A stretch of DNA of 42,393 nt from positions 1-42,393 of the forward strand of contig JAGAJV010000062.1 in assembly GCA_017625915.1 (NCBI GenBank), given 5' to 3'. Every line of letters begins with the position of its first letter. Position 1 is the stretch's first letter. The notes under the pieces are model-generated. The model made no database searches. It had not been told where the DNA came from and saw only the letters and a list, made by a program, of their open reading frames with translations. Below are positions 4,374-42,300 of this stretch, one piece after another. The stretch comes from Clostridia bacterium. GTDB taxonomy: Bacteria > Bacillota > Clostridia > Oscillospirales > CAG-272. A program made the position numbers and the translations under genes.

Positions 4374-5729
4374 TTAATCAAGTATATCATTCAAGTCATC
4401 AAAATTTTTGTGTGTAGTAACAACAATAACATTATCGCCCCACTGAATACAGGAATTACCGTCAGGGATAATAACCTCATTTTCTCTTATAATGCAAGCT
4501 ATAAGACAATTTTCCTTGGTTTTTAGAGTTTTTAATGGCTTATTAAAGAATTTTTCTTGCTTTTTAGCTGAAAATTCAAGCGCCTCAACTCTATCGTTAA
4601 CTAAACGGTAAAGGGTTAAAACATTACTGCCTCTCTTATTTGTCAAGGCTCTGATATAGCTAATAATTCTATCAGCAACAATTCGCTTGGGAGAAACAGT
4701 ATTTTTAATACCAAGCTCACCAAGCATATCATAAAGCTCGTCGCTTTTAATTTGAGTAATTGTTTTGGCTACATTCATTTTATTAGCAAACATTGATACA
4801 ATCATATTTTCCTCGTCAATGTTAGTAAGAGCAACAAATGCATCCATAGCCTCAATACCCTCTTCAATGAGCAGGTCGTGCTGAGTGCCATTACCGTGAA
4901 TAATAGTAACCTTGGGAAGCATATCAGCAAGCTCCTCGGCTCTGCTTATATCACTTTCCAAAAGCTTTATGGAATATTTTTTCTTAGAAAGCTCCTCAGC
5001 AAGATAATAGCCAATTTTATCACCGCCAACAATCATAACATTTTTAAATGGCGATTTTTCAAGCTTAGCCTCAGCTAGAAAATCACGAAGAGAATTTGCA
5101 TCGGAGGTAAAGTGAACTCTATCTCCAGCCTCAAACATAAATGTACCGGAAGGAATAATAACCTCATCACTACGCTGAACAGCGCAAACAAGCACCTTAG
5201 TATTTAGCTTTTTACCAAGAGAAATAAGAGTTTCACCAATCAGGGTACAGTCCTCGTCAACAACAATCTCGGCAAGAAGCACCCTACCCTTAGCAAAATG
5301 CTCCATTTGAGAAATAGACGGTAGGTTAATAAGATTGAAAATTTCCTCAGCGGTTTCCTTTTCAGGATTTACAATCATAGAAATTCCAAGCTCGTCCTTC
5401 ATATCACTAATTTGCTGTCTGTAATCTGGATTTCTTACACGGGCAATAGTGTTCTTAACCCCTGCCTTTTTTGCAGTTAAGCAAGCAAATACATTTAATT
5501 CATCACTATTTGTAAGGAAAATAGCAAGGTCGGTGTCCTTAATACCGGCTTCCTTTTGTATATCCATACAAGCACCGTTACCAACAACACCGAAAACATC
5601 ATATTTTTCAATCATGCCCTCAACCTTTTCCTTGTTTTCGTCAATAATGGTAATTGTGTGACCCATATTAGATAAGCTTCTTAGGACAGTCTTACCAATA
5701 GTGCCTAAGCCTACAATAATAATTTTCAT
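4374..5729 (-). CDS. trkA: Trk system NAD-binding protein TrkA (tandem RCK domains)
   Basis: Two Rossmann repeats (MKIIIVGLGTIG and VMIVGGDKIG). Start moved from the ORF-track 5786 to the ATG at 5729, which is preceded by aggag and begins the canonical MKIIIVG N-terminus. Confidence 0.85.
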   Translation of the reverse strand: MKIIIVGLGTIGKTVLRSLSNMGHTITIIDENKEKVEGMIEKYDVFGVVGNGACMDIQKEAGIKDTDLAIFLTNSDELNVFACLTAKKAGVKNTIARVRNPDYRQQISDMKDELGISMIVNPEKETAEEIFNLINLPSISQMEHFAKGRVLLAEIVVDEDCTLIGETLISLGKKLNTKVLVCAVQRSDEVIIPSGTFMFEAGDRVHFTSDANSLRDFLAEAKLEKSPFKNVMIVGGDKIGYYLAEELSKKKYSIKLLESDISRAEELADMLPKVTIIHGNGTQHDLLIEEGIEAMDAFVALTNIDEENMIVSMFANKMNVAKTITQIKSDELYDMLGELGIKNTVSPKRIVADRIISYIRALTNKRGSNVLTLYRLVNDRVEALEFSAKKQEKFFNKPLKTLKTKENCLIACIIRENEVIIPDGNSCIQWGDNVIVVTTHKNFDDLNDILD

Positions 5730-6194: not shown

Positions 6195-6448
6195 TGAATA
6201 ACTCTAGAGAAAGATTATTAAAGCAAATCCAAGCCTACGATTTTGCAGTATATGATACACTTTTATATCTCGATGCTTATCCAAGCTCTAAGGAAGCACA
6301 ATGCTTTTACAATAAATACAAAAAGCTAAGCATGCGAGCAAAGCAGGAATACGAGCAGAAATACGGACCTCTTACAATGCCCGAGGAAACAGCCGATTGG
6401 CAATGGACAGATGGACCTTGGCCATGGCAGGCTGACGAAAGGAGATAA
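6191..6448 (+). CDS. cotJB: Spore coat protein CotJB
   Basis: LLKQIQAYDFAVYDTLLYLDAYP motif; ATG 6191 overlaps the cotJA stop (ATGA) and follows aaggaggg. Confidence 0.8.
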   Translation: MMNNSRERLLKQIQAYDFAVYDTLLYLDAYPSSKEAQCFYNKYKKLSMRAKQEYEQKYGPLTMPEETADWQWTDGPWPWQADERR

Positions 6449-6453
6449 TAGAA

Positions 6454-7062
6454 ATGTTTTTATACGAGAAAAAGCTACAGTATCCTGTAAAAATCAAAAA
6501 TCCCAACCCTAAATACGCTCAAATCATTGTGTCCCAGCTTGGTGGTCCAGACGGTGAGATCGGCGCATCCCTTCGTTACCTAACTCAGCGCTTTGCAATG
6601 CCATACGATAAGGTTGTCGGCATACTTACTGACGTTGGCACCGAGGAGCTTAACCATGTAGAAATGGTATCATCAATCCTTTATCAGCTTACAAGAAGCT
6701 TAAGCCCGGAGGAAATAAAGAAGAGTGGCTTTGACACCTACTTCGTTGACCATACAACAGGTATTTATCCTGTTGCTGCAAGTGGTTATCCATACACAGC
6801 AGCCCAATTCCAATCAAAGGGTGATGTGCTTGCCGATTTGAACGAGGACCTGGCAGCCGAGCAAAAGGCAAGAGTTACCTACGATAATATTTTACGCTTA
6901 GTTGACGATCCCGATGTTTGCGACGCTATAAAATTCCTTCGTGCAAGAGAGGTAGTACATTATCAACGCTTCTGTGATGCATTAGGAATTGCACAAGACC
7001 ATATGGATTCTAAGAATTTCTATGGCTACAACCCGGCCTTTGATAAGGTTAAAAAGCAATAA
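6454..7062 (+). CDS. cotJC: Spore coat protein CotJC (manganese catalase family)
   Basis: 202 aa with di-metal ligand motifs (GEIGASLRYLTQRF, EELNHVEMV, REVVHYQRF). Confidence 0.9.
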   Translation: MFLYEKKLQYPVKIKNPNPKYAQIIVSQLGGPDGEIGASLRYLTQRFAMPYDKVVGILTDVGTEELNHVEMVSSILYQLTRSLSPEEIKKSGFDTYFVDHTTGIYPVAASGYPYTAAQFQSKGDVLADLNEDLAAEQKARVTYDNILRLVDDPDVCDAIKFLRAREVVHYQRFCDALGIAQDHMDSKNFYGYNPAFDKVKKQ

Positions 7063-35670: not shown

Positions 35671-38400
<2,730 letters not shown>

Positions 38401-38410
38401 AATACAACAA

Positions 38411-38448
38411 AAAGGATAGAGCAAATAGCCCTATCCTTTCGTTTTTTA
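38411..38448 (+). terminator. Intrinsic terminator
   Basis: Stem aaaggatag-gc / gc-ctatccttt, followed by cgtttttt. Confidence 0.6.
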
Positions 38449-38480
38449 TTATCGTAAATTAATAAGTGATCCCTTGTATT

Positions 38481-38775
38481 AAACAAAAATGACTAAGTCG
38501 GCAACACGGTCCCGTGTGTCGGGCTTAGTCATAGGTGGTCGAGATGACAGGAAGCATCGCAATAAATTGCTCGTAACACTTCGCGCGCAAATCGTGAGCG
38601 AGCTCCCATTTGCTTCGCTCGCTAGGCGCACCTGATTCAACTTGCGTTGAAAGCAGATGCGAACAGTCAACACAAACAAAAAAATCCTAAACCGAACATA
38701 AAGTTCAATTTAGGATTTTTATGGTCGAAGTGGCGATACCCGACTCGAACCTGCCAGAAAAAGTGTTTTGAAGCC
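38481..38775 (-). ncRNA. Unclassified structured-RNA-like element, copy A (core 38535-38727)
   Basis: 193-nt core about 93% identical to 41733-41927. On the minus strand: a 12-bp hairpin with U7, then a 4-way junction (P1 GCAUC/GAUGC, P2 UUCAAC-GCAA-GUUGAA, P3 GUGCGC/GCGCGC enclosing AGCGAGC/GCUCGCU, P4 short variable hairpin), then its own terminator (38491-38530 plus U-run). Overlapping ORF 38479..38679 judged non-coding. Confidence 0.6.
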
Positions 38776-38869
38776 TTTTGACATAAGGATTTAGGGCATA
38801 TTTATACTGGCAAAATAAAAATAGTTTTTGTAAAAAAGCAGATATTTGAAAGTATTTTTACGCAAAATA

Positions 38870-38898
38870 TTGATTTTTAAATAAAAATGTGCTAAAAT
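38870..38898 (+). promoter_or_regulatory. Candidate promoter for a short plus-strand transcript
   Basis: TTGATT (38870-38875), 17-nt spacer, TAAAAT (38893-38898); a plus-oriented terminator lies ~70 nt downstream. Confidence 0.4.
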
Positions 38899-38932
38899 AA
38901 AATCACGACTAAGTGGTGTGCTTTAGCATATC
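38891..38932. repeat. 42-nt direct repeat DR1 (partner at 40420-40462)
   Basis: gctaaaataaaatca-cgactaagtggtgtgctttagcatatc versus gctaaaacatatcatacgactaagtagtgtgctttagcatatc; contains inverted TGCTAAA...TTTAGCA. Confidence 0.7.
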
Positions 38933-38936
38933 ACAC

Positions 38937-38975
38937 AAGCATCAAAACTATTGGCGTAGTTTTGATGCTTTTTTA
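38937..38975 (+). terminator. Plus-strand-oriented intrinsic terminator
   Basis: 14-bp stem aagcatcaaaacta / tagttttgatgctt with loop ttggcg, followed by tttttt on the plus strand only. Confidence 0.6.
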
Positions 38976-38994
38976 TTTTTAGAAATCAAACCTT

Positions 38995-39333
38995 TCATTT
39001 TTCTATAAAGTTTACATTATTTGCACATATTTGTATATTATGATAAGAGCCAGTGACATCACTTTCAACACAAATATTAATTGAATTGTCTAATAATTCA
39101 ACCTTTACTATTTCATCGCTATTGATTTTGTAATTGTCATATGTGCAATTAGAACAATTAGAAAACTCAATTAGAACAATTCCGGTTTCTTTTTCACCAT
39201 CTTCAAAGGATGATTGTTGCCAATAGCAGAAATCAATTTCGAGACAAACGATATTGGCTGCTTTATCATAAGAAATGTCTTCAAGCAAACTACCTATTAG
39301 ATAGACTTTATTTATAAATTCTTTTATTGTCAT
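38995..39333 (-). CDS. Small acidic cytoplasmic protein, candidate immunity/antitoxin partner of the upstream gene
   Basis: Start moved to ATG 39333 (MTIKEFINK...), preceded by aaaggagg, 13 nt after the upstream stop; 112 aa, no signal peptide, no recognised family. Confidence 0.5.
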   Translation of the reverse strand: MTIKEFINKVYLIGSLLEDISYDKAANIVCLEIDFCYWQQSSFEDGEKETGIVLIEFSNCSNCTYDNYKINSDEIVKVELLDNSINICVESDVTGSYHNIQICANNVNFIEK

Positions 39334-39346
39334 TGTATACCTCCTT

Positions 39347-39682
39347 TTATGGTATAATGTGAGAAGCTTTTGAGTTTTTTGGCACGGGATTACCATTTTT
39401 ATCTAAATAATAATCGTGTTTTCCAGTGGAGTTGGGATTTAAAACATGGTAGTGGTCTTTTCCACCGTAGCCTCCTTGAGAGGCATCTCCTTTATCATAC
39501 CTTATGCTTAATCCATCTTTGTTTGTGTACATTTTTGAAGTAGTATTTTGCGACATACTAACAGGTGTAGTTTCTTTCCAGCCTTTTTCCAAAAGTTTAT
39601 TGGGATTTTTAGGCAAACTTTTTATAGTGGAGCGAATAGCACCACGAGAACCCGAATATCCTCCTGACATTCCTGAACCCAT
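39347..39682 (-). CDS. Small (111 aa) Gly/Ser-rich-N-terminus protein resembling a stand-alone polymorphic-toxin C-terminal domain
   Basis: MGSGMSGGYSGSRGA... then GW...LSIRYDKGD...GGKDHYHVLNPN...YYLDKNGNPVPKNSKASHI. The layout recalls small nuclease/RNase toxin CT domains (weak, by eye). ATG overlaps the upstream stop (TAATG), with an RBS aggagg inside the upstream gene. Confidence 0.5.
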   Translation of the reverse strand: MGSGMSGGYSGSRGAIRSTIKSLPKNPNKLLEKGWKETTPVSMSQNTTSKMYTNKDGLSIRYDKGDASQGGYGGKDHYHVLNPNSTGKHDYYLDKNGNPVPKNSKASHIIP

Positions 39683-40353
39683 TATAAATTCCTCCTTCGT
39701 TTAGTACTTATCCAGTCCGGATAGTTTACAAAGTCGGTTTTGTGCTTGAATTCATCAAATACGGAATTGGGCATAGCTCCGTAAACAAGTACAACTGTCG
39801 GTTCCAACTCATCAAGCATGGCTTTTAGACCTTCTCTAAAGTAGTGCTTGTTTTCTTGTCCTCTAATACAGCCATATGTGCTAATTGACACAATACTACG
39901 TTTGGGAACGCCTAAAAACGCAAACTTTTCAGGCAATTCTGTGGTGGTATAGCTTCGTTCATCTCCCCAACGAATATTTGGAATAACATATAACCCTTGC
40001 GCTTGCAAAAAGCTTCCAACTGCTCGGTTCATATATGTGTTTGCAATTTGCAAGCACAGAGGCATATCTCTATATAGAGAACAGTCTGGAGATATAATTG
40101 CAGAGAACTTCGAGAGCTCTGATAAGAAATTTTTTGTGCTTGTTAAAACATCAGAAAATTTTATATCATGCTCGTAAAAGTGAACGGCTTCAGTTTTGTC
40201 TTTGCTTCGTTTGATTTGAGTAAAAGGAATAACGGATTTTGGAATTATAATTTTATCGGGTTTTTTAATAACTGGTATTTCAAAAATACCATCAAAAAAA
40301 GCACTAGAAACGAGTTCGGAATTGAACCCATCATCTACTAAGTTTTTATTCAT
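39682..40353 (-). CDS. DUF4417-like protein, function unknown
   Basis: 223 aa; pattern HFYEHDIKF...ISPDCSLYRDMP...NRAVGSFLQAQGLYVIPNIRWGDERS...VSISTYG recalled as DUF4417-like, from memory and not verified. Confidence 0.55.
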   Translation of the reverse strand: MNKNLVDDGFNSELVSSAFFDGIFEIPVIKKPDKIIIPKSVIPFTQIKRSKDKTEAVHFYEHDIKFSDVLTSTKNFLSELSKFSAIISPDCSLYRDMPLCLQIANTYMNRAVGSFLQAQGLYVIPNIRWGDERSYTTTELPEKFAFLGVPKRSIVSISTYGCIRGQENKHYFREGLKAMLDELEPTVVLVYGAMPNSVFDEFKHKTDFVNYPDWISTKRRRNL

Positions 40354-40419
40354 GATATGTAACCTTTCTCCTCTAATAAAGAGGGATTTTTATTTTTAAA
40401 ATAGTTTAAAAAAGGGTAG

Positions 40420-40462
40420 GCTAAAACATATCATACGACTAAGTAGTGTGCTTTAGCATATC
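40420..40462. repeat. 43-nt direct repeat DR2 (partner at 38891-38932)
   Basis: About 85% identical to DR1, located 67 nt upstream of the DUF4417-like start codon. Confidence 0.7.
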
Positions 40463-40483
40463 CTTGCAATATTGGTTTTTGTT

Positions 40484-40521
40484 TTGTCAAGAGTAGTTGG
40501 CGCTAATCTTGACATTGTCAA
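40484..40521. promoter_or_regulatory. Cluster of TTGTCAAG / CTTGACA / TGTCAA half-sites including the perfect palindrome TTGACAtTGTCAA (40509-40521); candidate repressor operator
   Basis: Inverted repeats in the 200-nt gap between the ImmA gene and the DUF4417-like gene. Confidence 0.4.
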
Positions 40522-40556
40522 CAATCATAGTACATCACTCCTTTTAAAGTTTGTTT

Positions 40557-41081
40557 TTAATATTTTAATCTTTTTTTAGCAGCGGATTCAGAAACCCCAT
40601 ATGTGTTCATTAGTTCATTGATAGTCATGTTTTGAGTTGATTCATATGGCATCATAACTTCACCAGCTAGAGCCATAACTATCCATTCTATCCTTTTGTA
40701 TAAAGGAACATCTTGAGTTAGTTGACGAGAGAAAACAGGTTTAAAACCAAGCTTGTCAGCGAATGCATGCATGATTTCGTGCATAATATGCATGCGATGT
40801 CCACCTACCTTTTTTTCAAACGCTCCATTATAAACTGATTCCTTTATTTGAATTAGGTAGCCACTATCGTCAACAGAACATTGTGCGGGAACGTTTTTAG
40901 GTAAAACATTATTGTAAACAACATCATATCGCACATCTTCAAATCCTTCAAAATCAGGGAGCTTATCCAATAACTTTACAGGATCGACAGGTTCGTTTTC
41001 AGATAGTCCACAGATTGAACGGAACAATTTAGAATAAAGTCGAAGCTCATAACGGTTGGTTGCTTTAGTTTCGTAATCCAT
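40557..41081 (-). CDS. ImmA/IrrE family zinc metallopeptidase
   Basis: HEXXH motif (MHIMHEIMHAF), 174 aa, translationally coupled (TAATG) to the upstream HTH gene, the classic ImmR-ImmA arrangement. Confidence 0.8.
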   Translation of the reverse strand: MDYETKATNRYELRLYSKLFRSICGLSENEPVDPVKLLDKLPDFEGFEDVRYDVVYNNVLPKNVPAQCSVDDSGYLIQIKESVYNGAFEKKVGGHRMHIMHEIMHAFADKLGFKPVFSRQLTQDVPLYKRIEWIVMALAGEVMMPYESTQNMTINELMNTYGVSESAAKKRLKY

Positions 41082-41443
41082 TAATTTTCCTCCTTGTTAA
41101 GAAGTTTAATAATGGCAGCCGCTGTATCATCATCGAGCTTGTCAAAGGAACGCTGAAATTGCACAGCGAGATTTCTCTGAGAATTGCTAGCAGAAATAAG
41201 ATTAACTTTAACTTGGGTTTTTGAATATTCAACAGCTTCAATTAGTTCAGCTTGCTCTTGCTCATTTAATTGGTAGTGTGTGATTAGGATAGGAATCCAT
41301 TCATCGGGAACATTTCTTTTTCCGTTTTCGACGGTGGAAACAAAGGGAATCTTAACATTGAACAGTTTTGCAGTATCTCCCATTACCTCATGATGTTTAA
41401 CTCGTTGTATTCGCATAAATTCTCCAAATTTAGTATAGCTCAT
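41081..41443 (-). CDS. XRE-family helix-turn-helix transcriptional regulator
   Basis: HTH_3-like N-terminus (FGEFMRIQRVKHH..MGDTAKLFNVKIPFVSTVENGKRNVP). The second ATG (41443) has better spacing to aaaggag than the ORF-track start 41449. Confidence 0.75.
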   Translation of the reverse strand: MSYTKFGEFMRIQRVKHHEVMGDTAKLFNVKIPFVSTVENGKRNVPDEWIPILITHYQLNEQEQAELIEAVEYSKTQVKVNLISASNSQRNLAVQFQRSFDKLDDDTAAAIIKLLNKEEN

Positions 41444-41470
41444 ATTCATTCTCCTTTCCTGTTTGATTCA

Positions 41471-41499
41471 AGTATATCATAAGTTTACCTAAAAGTCAA
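41471..41499 (-). promoter_or_regulatory. Sigma-A-type promoter of the XRE-ImmA operon
   Basis: On the minus strand, TTGACT, 17-nt spacer, tgaTATACT (extended -10). Confidence 0.55.
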
Positions 41500-41690
41500 T
41501 AATTAATTTAACCTTTTTTTGATTAATTTTCGCAAAAGGATAAAAAAAAGACGAGTGAGCAACTCATCTTTAAGTAAATTGAGGTTCGAATCCTGCGTGA
41601 TAGACTGTGAGTTTCGAACTTTTTAGAAAAATGTGCAAATAAATTTGTGAATGTTTACCAAAATAAATGTTCATAAAATGTACAAATTAA

Positions 41691-41975
41691 ACAAAAAAGC
41701 AACTGAAATTTCAAAAGAAATTCCAGTTGCAAGTGGTCGAGATGACAGGAAGCATCGCGTACTACGTTGCTCGTAACACTTCGCGCGCAAATCGTGAGCA
41801 AGCCCACATTTGCTTCGCTTGCTAGGCGCACCTGATTCAACTTGCGTTGAAAGCAGATGCGAACAGTCAACACAAACAAAAAAATCCTAAACCGAACATA
41901 AAGTTCAATTTAGGATTTTTATGGTCGCAATGAGCCACCCTCAGTTGAACACCCTATTAAAAAGTGCAACAAACC
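41691..41975 (-). ncRNA. Unclassified structured-RNA-like element, copy B (core 41733-41927)
   Basis: Same architecture as copy A. P3b is AGCAAGC/GCUUGCU here versus AGCGAGC/GCUCGCU in copy A (a compensatory double change). It has a different P4 tip and a different terminator hairpin (41699-41730), followed by the same uuuuuguuuaau tail. Overlapping ORF 41655..41879 judged non-coding. Confidence 0.6.
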
Positions 41976-42300
41976 CATATAGCAAAAGGAGTTTTGTGAC
42001 TTTTTTACGAGGCGGAATTTTTTAGAAAAATGTAAATCGTATATCAAAAAGACCTCAAAAATATCACTTTTTGAAATTTGAGATTTTTATTTTAAGGGTG
42101 CAAAGACACAGATTTCAAGAGTGCAAAAAAGTAAAATTAAAGTTGCACTCTTTTGATTGAAAATCAGCAGATGTGCTGAAAATTTGGCACTACTGCTTTG
42201 AGAGGAATAAATTGCTCAAATGAGATTGTATAAGAAAAGATTTTATGATATAATAAAATATCAGTTAATCAATTAAAGAAGAAAGGTATGTATCAGTGAT

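Follow-up and report, generated by a model that had tools for sequence, protein, structure and literature searches.

The DNA analyzed here (the window) is a stretch of 42,393 nucleotides (nt), contig JAGAJV010000062.1 of a Clostridia bacterium of the Oscillospirales (assembly GCA_017625915.1). Near its right end, between the plus-strand gene abfA (36548-38035, Alpha-L-AF_C) and a GH43 gene, lies a block in which the list of open reading frames (ORFs) and family scans gave five credible genes, all on the minus strand. In the order of transcription they are an XRE-like helix-turn-helix (HTH) regulator of 120-122 amino acids (aa) (41081-41449), an ImmA/IrrE-type M78 metallopeptidase of 174 aa (40557-41081), a DUF4417 protein of 223 aa (39682-40353), a basic protein of 111 aa (39347-39682; isoelectric point [pI] 9.7), and an acidic protein of 112 aa (38995-39333; pI 4.2). 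The last two are referred to below as the toxin and the immunity protein, on comparative grounds. The window ends within the GH43 gene, whose Glyco_hydro_43 domain (Pfam) was found in a longer contig of the same species (L006). The block is bracketed by two copies, in the same orientation, of an element of ~195 nt. A first-pass annotation of this DNA, made from the letters alone, had proposed the same five genes and the same flanking copies; ORFs and Pfam bear out the former and sequence comparison the latter.

The five genes have the organization of a single operon-like unit, with undisrupted reading frames throughout. TAATG stop/start overlaps are kept at two junctions, XRE/ImmA and DUF4417/toxin, and strong Shine-Dalgarno sequences precede both the toxin and the immunity gene, the latter with its own AAAGGAGG. 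Upstream of the XRE gene there is a promoter-like site, TTGACT-17-TATACT with a TG (41471-41499, minus strand), and after the immunity gene a bidirectional terminator-like hairpin (38937-38970, minus strand). The peptidase carries a HEIMH (HExxH) motif and matches PF06114 (E=1.3e-5, 25.4 bits with a cutoff of 22) and phrog_87; DUF4417 is a firm Pfam assignment (E=7.7e-52), and the XRE regulator matches HTH_31 weakly. Scans with Pfam, PHROGs, NCBIfam, and PADLOC found in the island no secretion-system gene and, in agreement with what had been proposed, no integrase, transposase, reverse transcriptase, or phage structural gene. NCBIfam, PHROGs, and PADLOC gave no informative match for the toxin or the immunity protein. 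The PADLOC run that had been recommended for the cassette proteins was uninformative, the sole match in PADLOC-DB 2.0 being a weak HTH_VI for XRE, with none for ImmA, DUF4417, toxin, or immunity protein.

The toxin consists of a Gly-rich leader, MGSGMSGGYSGSRGA, followed by a C-terminal domain. A word-index search retrieved 88 close homologs, one of them with a PT-HINT domain, and a profile search of 1.84 billion representatives at E<=1e-3 gave 545 proteins, in many of which the domain forms the extreme C terminus of a long protein. Among the listed matches, Pfam shows it capping RHS-repeat proteins of 510-1923 aa, a WXG100 protein (type VII secretion system [T7SS]), a PT-HINT fragment, and a phage-portal fusion. 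The last of these (P0300, 704 aa) is a phage portal protein whose C terminus is fused to the domain of the window toxin; judging from this architecture, it would be a virion-delivered polymorphic toxin. Homologs of ~190 aa share the same N terminus, followed by an inserted hydrophobic segment that, by reading of the alignment, resembles the PT-TG pre-toxin domain. The 111-aa protein itself has no Pfam domain, no signal peptide, and no recognized secretion or trafficking domain, just the leader of ~15 residues. Its AlphaFold2 (AF2) model is good (predicted local distance difference test [pLDDT] 86), and Foldseek found no fold match in PDB with E<1; a search of PDB by sequence likewise gave no significant hit for it. 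The guess, from its DHYH...SH motifs, that it could be an HNH/EndoVII-type nuclease is unsupported.

The 112-aa protein has no Pfam match and no PDB match. Its homologs at 42% (L131) and 38% (L129) identity each stand directly after a homolog of the toxin, and because they do so in unrelated loci, we consider the 112-aa protein the predicted cognate immunity protein. These comparisons identify the 111-aa protein, at the level of sequence, as a genuine polymorphic-toxin C-terminal domain of an unnamed family. The description of the pair as a toxin C-terminus-like protein with an acidic partner was thus well founded, given the domain's occurrence on RHS, WXG100, and portal proteins and its co-varying partner.

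The combination is not confined to the window. In a census of the best 80 of 380 confirmed metagenome DUF4417 loci, DUF4417 was followed by a gene that begins at its stop and encodes an N-terminal leader of the form MGxGxSGxYxNTKG; such a gene directly followed DUF4417 in 52 of the 56 loci with a downstream ORF. The leader precedes at least seven unrelated C-terminal domains: EndoU_bacteria (5 loci), DUF6883 (4), Ntox50 (1), and, in the rest, at least four unassigned families. DUF6883 is named among the BECR RNases in a preprint (bioRxiv 10.64898/2026.08.28.747851). The leader toxin is followed by a variable small protein, for instance DUF4926 after DUF6883. Upstream of DUF4417 the front end changes as well: XRE homologs stand ahead of ImmA in 32/80 related loci, and Fic precedes DUF4417 in 5/80. 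Around close DUF4417 homologs in other genomes we found the orders Fic-DUF4417-DUF6883-DUF4926 (L016 and L018) and HTH-M78-DUF4417-EndoU-111 aa (L019), and the toxin family of the window also follows DUF4417 after a lone HTH (HTH-DUF4417-toxin-immunity, L129) or an AAA_21 ATPase (AAA_21-DUF4417-toxin-immunity, L131 and L132).

From these arrangements, the invariant core consists of DUF4417, a leader-tagged exchangeable toxin, and an immunity protein, with an interchangeable upstream module. XRE/ImmA control, which the first-pass annotation had named as part of the combination, is therefore not a defining feature, since Fic, an AAA_21 ATPase, or an HTH by itself can take its place. Its statement that the combination matched no recognized system holds: there is no PADLOC match for DUF4417 with toxin and immunity protein, and literature searches on DUF4417, PF14386, DUF6883, and polymorphic toxins with ImmA turned up no description of it. 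One of the AAA_21 loci contains a tandem array (L131, 4327-7442) in which DUF4417, toxin, and immunity genes are followed by another, truncated copy of DUF4417 and then by four small orphan genes. This array adjoins a transposase, a GmrSD-type restriction gene, and a serine-recombinase fragment.

DUF4417 is common both in phages and in gut Firmicutes, with 494 phage records and >1,000 close relatives in metagenomes. Three IMG/VR contigs (L124, L126, and L127) carry the order large serine integrase-M78-DUF4417-leader protein (MGTGFHGG...), and a fourth (L125) has tail genes, an internal virion protein, DUF4417, and a MGGGRGAG... protein. The Streptococcus phage Javan23 encodes a ParB_N-DUF4417 fusion, followed by an overlapping gene for a MGGRGASSG... 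protein just before the terminase; the similarity of this protein to the toxin of a second cassette found in another strain of the window's species (L010, see below) is confined to the MGGRG start. ParB-DUF4417 fusions have been recorded previously, without a function (bioRxiv 10.1101/2025.10.10.680097). A fecal phage scaffold (L134, MT835627, 3463-7654) contains the complete order XRE-ImmA-DUF4417-leader toxin-immunity, flanked by a type I restriction-modification (R-M) methylase and a 260-aa resolvase-type serine recombinase. In no other case seen did a recombinase directly adjoin the cassette.

DUF4417 gave an AF2 model of high confidence (pLDDT 90.5), a predicted partial TIM barrel. Its best PDB match by Foldseek is the DNA preQ0 insertase DpdA (7ui4; E=1.7e-3, probability 0.99, template modeling [TM] score 0.42), and in BFVD the best matches other than DUF4417 itself are phage "queuine tRNA-ribosyltransferases" (E=1.6e-4, probability 1.0, TM 0.49). 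The predicted fold therefore resembles DpdA/TGT, pointing to nucleic-acid base exchange. Many acidic and aromatic residues are invariant in the family, among them E61, D63, D90, D96, and D131, which suggests that DUF4417 is an enzyme. DpdB, the partner of DpdA, is a ParB-like ATPase; the phage ParB-DUF4417 fusion would parallel the DpdB and DpdA pair, a likeness that is suggestive only. Structure prediction, one of the checks that had been proposed, was thus productive for DUF4417 and yielded no PDB fold for the toxin.

Within the window, the DUF4417-toxin-immunity submodule is itself bracketed by a 28-nt direct repeat that reads GATATGCTAAAGCACAC[C/T]ACTTAGTCGT on the minus strand. The first copy (40435-40462, minus strand) lies ~80-110 nt upstream of the DUF4417 start and the second (38905-38932, GATATGCTAAAGCACACCACTTAGTCGT on the minus strand) beyond the operon terminator. 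The same bracket recurs in both cassettes of L010 and in L039-L042, and it is not found in more distant cassettes. As a general trait of the cassettes it was rejected, since it occurred in 4/59 loci against 0/59 in a mismatched control and only in the close lineage of the window. The motif could be an operator, an internal-promoter region, or a site of module exchange.

The elements that bracket the island are element A (38535-38728), the right-hand direct repeat in gene orientation, and element B (41733-41928), the left-hand one, both read on the minus strand. They are ~94% identical, and shuffled sequences gave an expectation of 0 such matches. The duplication in fact amounts to ~258 nt, since the segment 38729-38792 is a diverged copy of 41929-41990. 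On the minus strand both repeats end in TCCTGTCATCTCGACCA. The same sequence forms the 3' end of a tRNA-Pro(UGG) gene that this species carries a few kb outside the window; these 17 nt comprise the 3' strand of the T stem, the 3' strand of the acceptor, and ACCA. Element copies adjoining a tRNA-Pro(CGG) gene carry the 3' end of that tRNA instead. The order on the minus strand is terminator, ~150-nt body, TCCTGTCATCTCGACCA, and a further terminator. The smaller features around the repeats fit into the same layout. On the minus strand, element A is followed by a terminator-like stem-loop, an inverted repeat (hairpin H, 38489-38532), and element B directly by a strong terminator hairpin that marks the island-side junction (41699-41730). 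The tail of element B spans 41929-42083, and its diverged copy next to element A (the T segment, 38729-38792) contains a decayed fragment of a tRNA T arm and acceptor ending in CACTTCGACCA. The noncoding region upstream of the island genes also holds an inverted 14-nt fragment of the tRNA-Pro T arm (41582-41595, AGGTTCGAATCCTG on the plus strand), of which ~0.01 matches are expected by chance.

Using a conserved 17-mer of the repeat as a probe, we sampled 19 loci from ~17 uncultured "Eubacteriales/Clostridia" genomes of ruminant and other guts. Of 21 loci, 14 have an intact tRNA-Pro gene just past the last element and encoded by the same strand. The elements form tandem arrays downstream of tRNA-Pro in many gut Clostridia that are uncultured (L020-L038), and in variants from two of these loci (L036 and L037) the central hairpin carries a large insertion, well over 100 nt long. 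When 23 distinct copies were aligned, they supported 23 predicted pairs, with 97% of cells paired and compensatory changes in 12 pairs. The covariation score was 0.473 against 0.195 in shuffles and was reached by none of 500, and base pairing collapses once the partners are slid against each other. In one helix, CAGG, TAGG, or GGAG is matched by the tRNA-like CCTG, CCTA, or CTCC; the element thus keeps a T stem with its loop replaced by ~85 nt. G-U cells outnumber A-C cells (47 versus 9), which favors folding of the minus strand, a measure biased by the fact that the structure was predicted on that strand. The repeats matched no Rfam family, either at the gathering threshold over the full window or at E<=10 over 38400-39000, and neither ARAGORN nor the Rfam tRNA model recognized a tRNA cloverleaf at either of them. 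On this comparative evidence the bracketing repeats are structured RNA-like units of tRNA-Pro origin that share the strand of the cassette genes. The earlier label of "RNA-like repeats" is accordingly right about structure, now with covariation, and needs amending in that the repeats have a recognizable source, even with no Rfam family. A role as riboswitch or leader for GH43 was rejected, considering the opposite-strand folding and the terminators at the ends.

Comparison with related contigs supports the view that the block is an insertion. The island is present in the same-species contigs L001, L002, and L006-L009, several of which break at the repeats. At the corresponding site of two other species (L031 and L037), hairpin H, a single element, and the tail stand ahead of GH43, and this single unit aligns both to the left flank of the window plus element A and to element B plus the right flank. 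Hairpin H is thus common to these single-element sites. In L035 the GH43 region is 99% identical to the window and contains zero elements. Because related species have one element or none at the site, sequence comparison identifies the block as an accessory insertion of ~3.2 kb. The empty site with a single RNA element that had been anticipated does exist, in related species rather than in the species of the window. The other idea put forward, that of a decayed or satellite mobile element, holds as far as an accessory insertion free of a recombinase is concerned; decay is unlikely in view of the compact, intact architecture found at many unrelated loci.

Rearrangements at the same site involve the elements too. 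In the other strain, L010, three elements separate two cassettes, with an intact tRNA-Pro gene at the far end. Its second cassette (HTH_19-M78-DUF4417-126 aa-92 aa-75 aa, where the counterpart of XRE matches HTH_19/HTH_3) is divergently oriented and stands in place of GFO_IDH and GH43 (L010 2389-5644 versus L006 4441-7825). The break points between L010 and L006 are element copies and the position matching 42084 of the window, at which the element-free site of L035 breaks as well. L006 further contains two degenerate elements in tandem (4492-4745) and, at 6358-6480, a site with hairpin H and T from which the core element is missing. In L031 the block of hairpin H, element, and tail (~405 nt) is flanked by a 12-13-nt duplication, TTTTTATTTTAA (L031 1338-1781 versus L035 5560-5660), and is located between a GH4-like gene and GH43. 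Because this block is itself a flanked insertion, it may be a small nonautonomous mobile RNA gene. An ORF of 95 aa, which had been overlooked, lies between abfA and the island (38113-38400, plus strand); it has no family match, and in every related contig it is conserved and annotated as a gene.

Sister islands are found at other gene ends. Flanking repeats correspond to the duplicated last part of thiC in L019 (125 nt, 96%), to the duplicated end of a spoIVB-like peptidase gene with its terminator in L018 (124 nt, 98%), to a spoIVB-like gene end in another species in L054 (87%), and to the duplicated 3' half of tRNA-Thr in L064 (94%). In L039, L071, L087, L097, and L117 the repeats measure 66-176 nt and are not assigned to a gene end; that of L071 is 176 nt, and that of L039 is an intergenic segment of 129 nt situated shortly after the preceding ORF. 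The repeat-bounded sister islands span 2.0-3.6 kb, and no recombinase family was detected in those examined (Pfam and precomputed annotations). The paired repeat copies are not identical, differing by 2-22%. Phages 21 and e14 carry a surrogate 3' end of icd, and a divergence of this order fits an element-borne surrogate gene end of the icd type better than a fresh target duplication. The island of the window is located at the 3' end of a tRNA-Pro-derived element, as its sisters are at the 3' ends of thiC, spoIVB-like, and tRNA-Thr genes.

In L018 and L054 three spoIVB-like 3' ends stand in a row (L018 5384-5507, 8575-8698, and 13032-13155; L054 1-107, 3375-3481, and 4347-4431). The second interval of L018 contains ordinary metabolic genes (LysR, ADH, and aminotransferase) and parallels the GH43/GFO_IDH segment between elements. 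The extra gene-end copies and the arrays of tRNA-Pro elements point to repeated accretion at one site. Long flanking repeats as a universal trait were rejected, being present at only about a dozen of the loci with adequate flanks; two of these have repeats of other kinds, tandem palindromic units (L102) and paralogous toxin genes (L114). No terminal motifs common to all islands were found beyond close relatives. Neither did we find a helper recombinase for island mobilization, nor, in the ORF translations of 19 genome loci inspected by eye and not scanned with a family library, an integrase consistently adjoining the RNA elements. We infer that mobilization in trans, of a cis-mobilizable or satellite-like island, is the most economical reading.

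Taken together, we interpret the block, with a probability of roughly 0.6, as a mobile integrase-less conflict cassette of ~3.2 kb with a core of DUF4417, leader toxin, and immunity protein and an interchangeable regulator, inserted at a tRNA-Pro-derived element. In the mechanism we propose, by analogy with ImmR/ImmA of ICEBs1, the operon would be repressed by XRE, which ImmA would cleave upon a stress or infection signal. DUF4417 would act on DNA or tRNA and might be the carrier, activator, or specificity subunit for the leader-tagged toxin, while the host would be protected by the immunity protein; overall, the cassette could serve abortive infection, addiction, or competition. Insertion would probably be carried out by a recombinase supplied in trans, as for cis-mobilizable and satellite elements. 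The island has its own copy of the tRNA-Pro-derived element, hence the bracketing repeats.

Several points count against this interpretation. The XRE assignment is below threshold (HTH_31, E=0.0078, 16.9 bits with a cutoff of 27), and the DpdA/TGT likeness of DUF4417 is structural alone (TM 0.42-0.49), since sequence and profile searches of PDB gave no significant match. All contigs of the species itself that reach the site carry the island, so that empty sites are known from other species only. A flanking repeat of at least 35 nt is absent at many DUF4417 loci with long flanks, and the long duplications are limited to the dozen or so loci mentioned. The census relied on a simple in-house ORF caller. 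The phage versions have no obvious immunity gene, so the leader protein is not necessarily always a toxin, and PADLOC lends no support to a role in defense. Finally, toxicity and neutralization are assigned to the pair by comparative criteria, and for induction and mobility, too, the interpretation depends on comparative and computational data.

A functional version of the conflict cassette is an abortive-infection or antiphage system, in which DUF4417 would sense or process phage DNA, possibly base modified, and free the toxin from the immunity protein, with XRE/ImmA adding induction. We regard it as a tentative possibility. The front ends (ImmA/XRE, Fic, and AAA_21 ATPase) are typical of defense modules, L131 adjoins GmrSD and a transposase, the MT835627 cassette has a type I R-M methylase for a neighbor, some of the toxins are RNases such as EndoU, and the DpdA-like fold of DUF4417 would suit such a role. 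However, no PADLOC model covers the five proteins apart from the weak HTH match, phages themselves carry pairs of DUF4417 and leader gene next to the terminase, and elsewhere the toxin family is deployed on secreted RHS and T7SS proteins. This last use, with the phage-portal fusion, is what would be expected if the toxin were instead secreted or delivered by phages to kill nonimmune neighbors, the leader being an export or virion-packaging signal and DUF4417 a loading partner. The PT-TG-like hydrophobic insert read from the alignment of the longer members, the internal virion protein gene preceding DUF4417 in L125, and the position of the Streptococcus phage pair just before the terminase agree with delivery. 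Nevertheless, it is an unlikely explanation for the window, where the toxin has no signal peptide or recognized secretion domain and the island no secretion-system or structural gene.

Two further explanations were considered. The gene order of ICEBs1 is immR-immA-int, and in the window DUF4417 takes the position of int; the block might thus be a remnant of a prophage or of an integrative and conjugative element (ICE), in which immR-immA and cargo were left between att sites after loss of the integrase, immobile and with no function of its own. The integrase-M78-DUF4417-leader order in IMG/VR, the resemblance of the flanking repeats to attL/attR at a tRNA-derived site, and the inverted tRNA fragment within the island would fit. 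But the same short, intact unit of 2.0-3.6 kb occurs at unrelated targets in different organisms, none of the five genes has a disrupted frame and the overlaps are kept, and two independent deletions would be required each time; to our knowledge, large serine integrases do not generate repeats of >100 nt such as these. We therefore consider a remnant quite unlikely. In the other explanation, DUF4417 is a mobility enzyme that inserts the cassette at gene 3' ends, and the toxin-immunity pair is an addiction module. DUF4417 is the sole gene common to all repeat-flanked islands, and its place in the operon is again that of int in immR-immA-int. Its predicted fold is like that of a DNA base-exchange enzyme, and phages have it as a fusion with a ParB-like NTPase domain (bioRxiv 10.1101/2025.10.10.680097). 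Yet most DUF4417 loci have no flanking repeats, the phage copies are fixed in place next to the terminase, and the 2-22% divergence of the flanking copies fits a surrogate gene end better than fresh duplication. Since we also know of no strand-transfer chemistry for a TGT/DpdA-type fold, this explanation is very improbable.

For the conflict cassette itself, a broader scheme can be formulated, which as a whole we consider doubtful: DUF4417 would be a DpdA/TGT-like enzyme directed at DNA or tRNA that forms a two-part system with any protein bearing the MGxGxSGxY leader, arming, delivering, or targeting exchangeable toxins. The system would be common to temperate phages, as ParB-DUF4417 next to the terminase, and to integrase-less islands of 2-3.6 kb homing to gene 3' ends, and DUF4417 could join in the homing. 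There is a real chance that the pairing of DUF4417 with a leader is a new principle. DUF4417 is a large family with no assigned function and gains a testable context from its obligatory, translationally coupled partner with a conserved leader and swappable toxins. If our interpretation is true, the cassette represents either a new polymorphic-toxin architecture or a new abortive-infection module, an unnamed toxin/immunity pair receives an assignment, and very small recombinase-less islands at gene 3' ends bear on how accessory cassettes move in uncultured gut Clostridia.

Among known systems, the cassette is perhaps best described as a polymorphic toxin-immunity or toxin-antitoxin (TA)-like unit on an integrase-less island. 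Its front resembles ImmR/ImmA of ICEBs1 and Firmicute prophages in having an HTH gene, an overlapping M78 gene with HExxH, cotranscribed cargo, and a promoter-like site upstream, and by this analogy we infer that ImmA may cleave XRE here as well. However, the gene after immA is DUF4417 rather than an integrase, and sister cassettes swap the pair for Fic, an AAA_21 ATPase, or a lone HTH. Unlike autonomous prophages, ICEs, or integrative and mobilizable elements (IMEs), the island has no tyrosine, serine, or DDE recombinase of its own. Cis-mobilizable elements (CIMEs) and tandem accretion at the 3' ends of tRNAs and genes are known from the ICESt elements of Streptococcus thermophilus. The island shares with CIMEs the direct repeats from a target 3' end, the lack of recombination genes, the empty sites in relatives, and att-like copies in a row (three elements in L010 and three spoIVB 3' ends in L018 and L054). 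It differs from them in that no helper or integrase was found, the targets vary among closely related cassettes, and one of the targets is not a genuine tRNA but an RNA element derived from one.

The DUF4417 protein has DpdA (7ui4) as its top structural match in PDB, and the phage ParB_N-DUF4417 fusion mirrors DpdB and DpdA; however, the TM score is only 0.42-0.49, DUF4417 has about half the length of DpdA and no sequence similarity to it, there are no preQ0 synthesis genes near DUF4417, and its partner is a toxin. Three-component TA modules such as paaR-paaA-parE consist of a regulator, a toxin, and an antitoxin. The cassette likewise combines a small basic toxin, an acidic neutralizer, and an HTH regulator in one operon, whereas its toxin precedes the immunity gene, an extra enzyme-like protein is present, and its toxins come from the secreted polymorphic repertoire. 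That repertoire was reportedly cataloged by Zhang, Aravind, and colleagues in 2012 (Rhs, LXG/WXG100 T7SS, and MuF-type phage toxins). As in these polymorphic toxin systems, a constant N terminus is joined to exchangeable C-terminal toxins (EndoU, BECR RNase, Ntox50, and the family of the window), the cognate immunity gene is directly downstream, and orphan arrays occur (L131). In contrast to them, the constant N terminus of the cassette amounts to only ~15 residues and includes no trafficking domain, and its constant partner is a separate, translationally coupled DUF4417 protein encoded on a 3-kb island with its own regulator.

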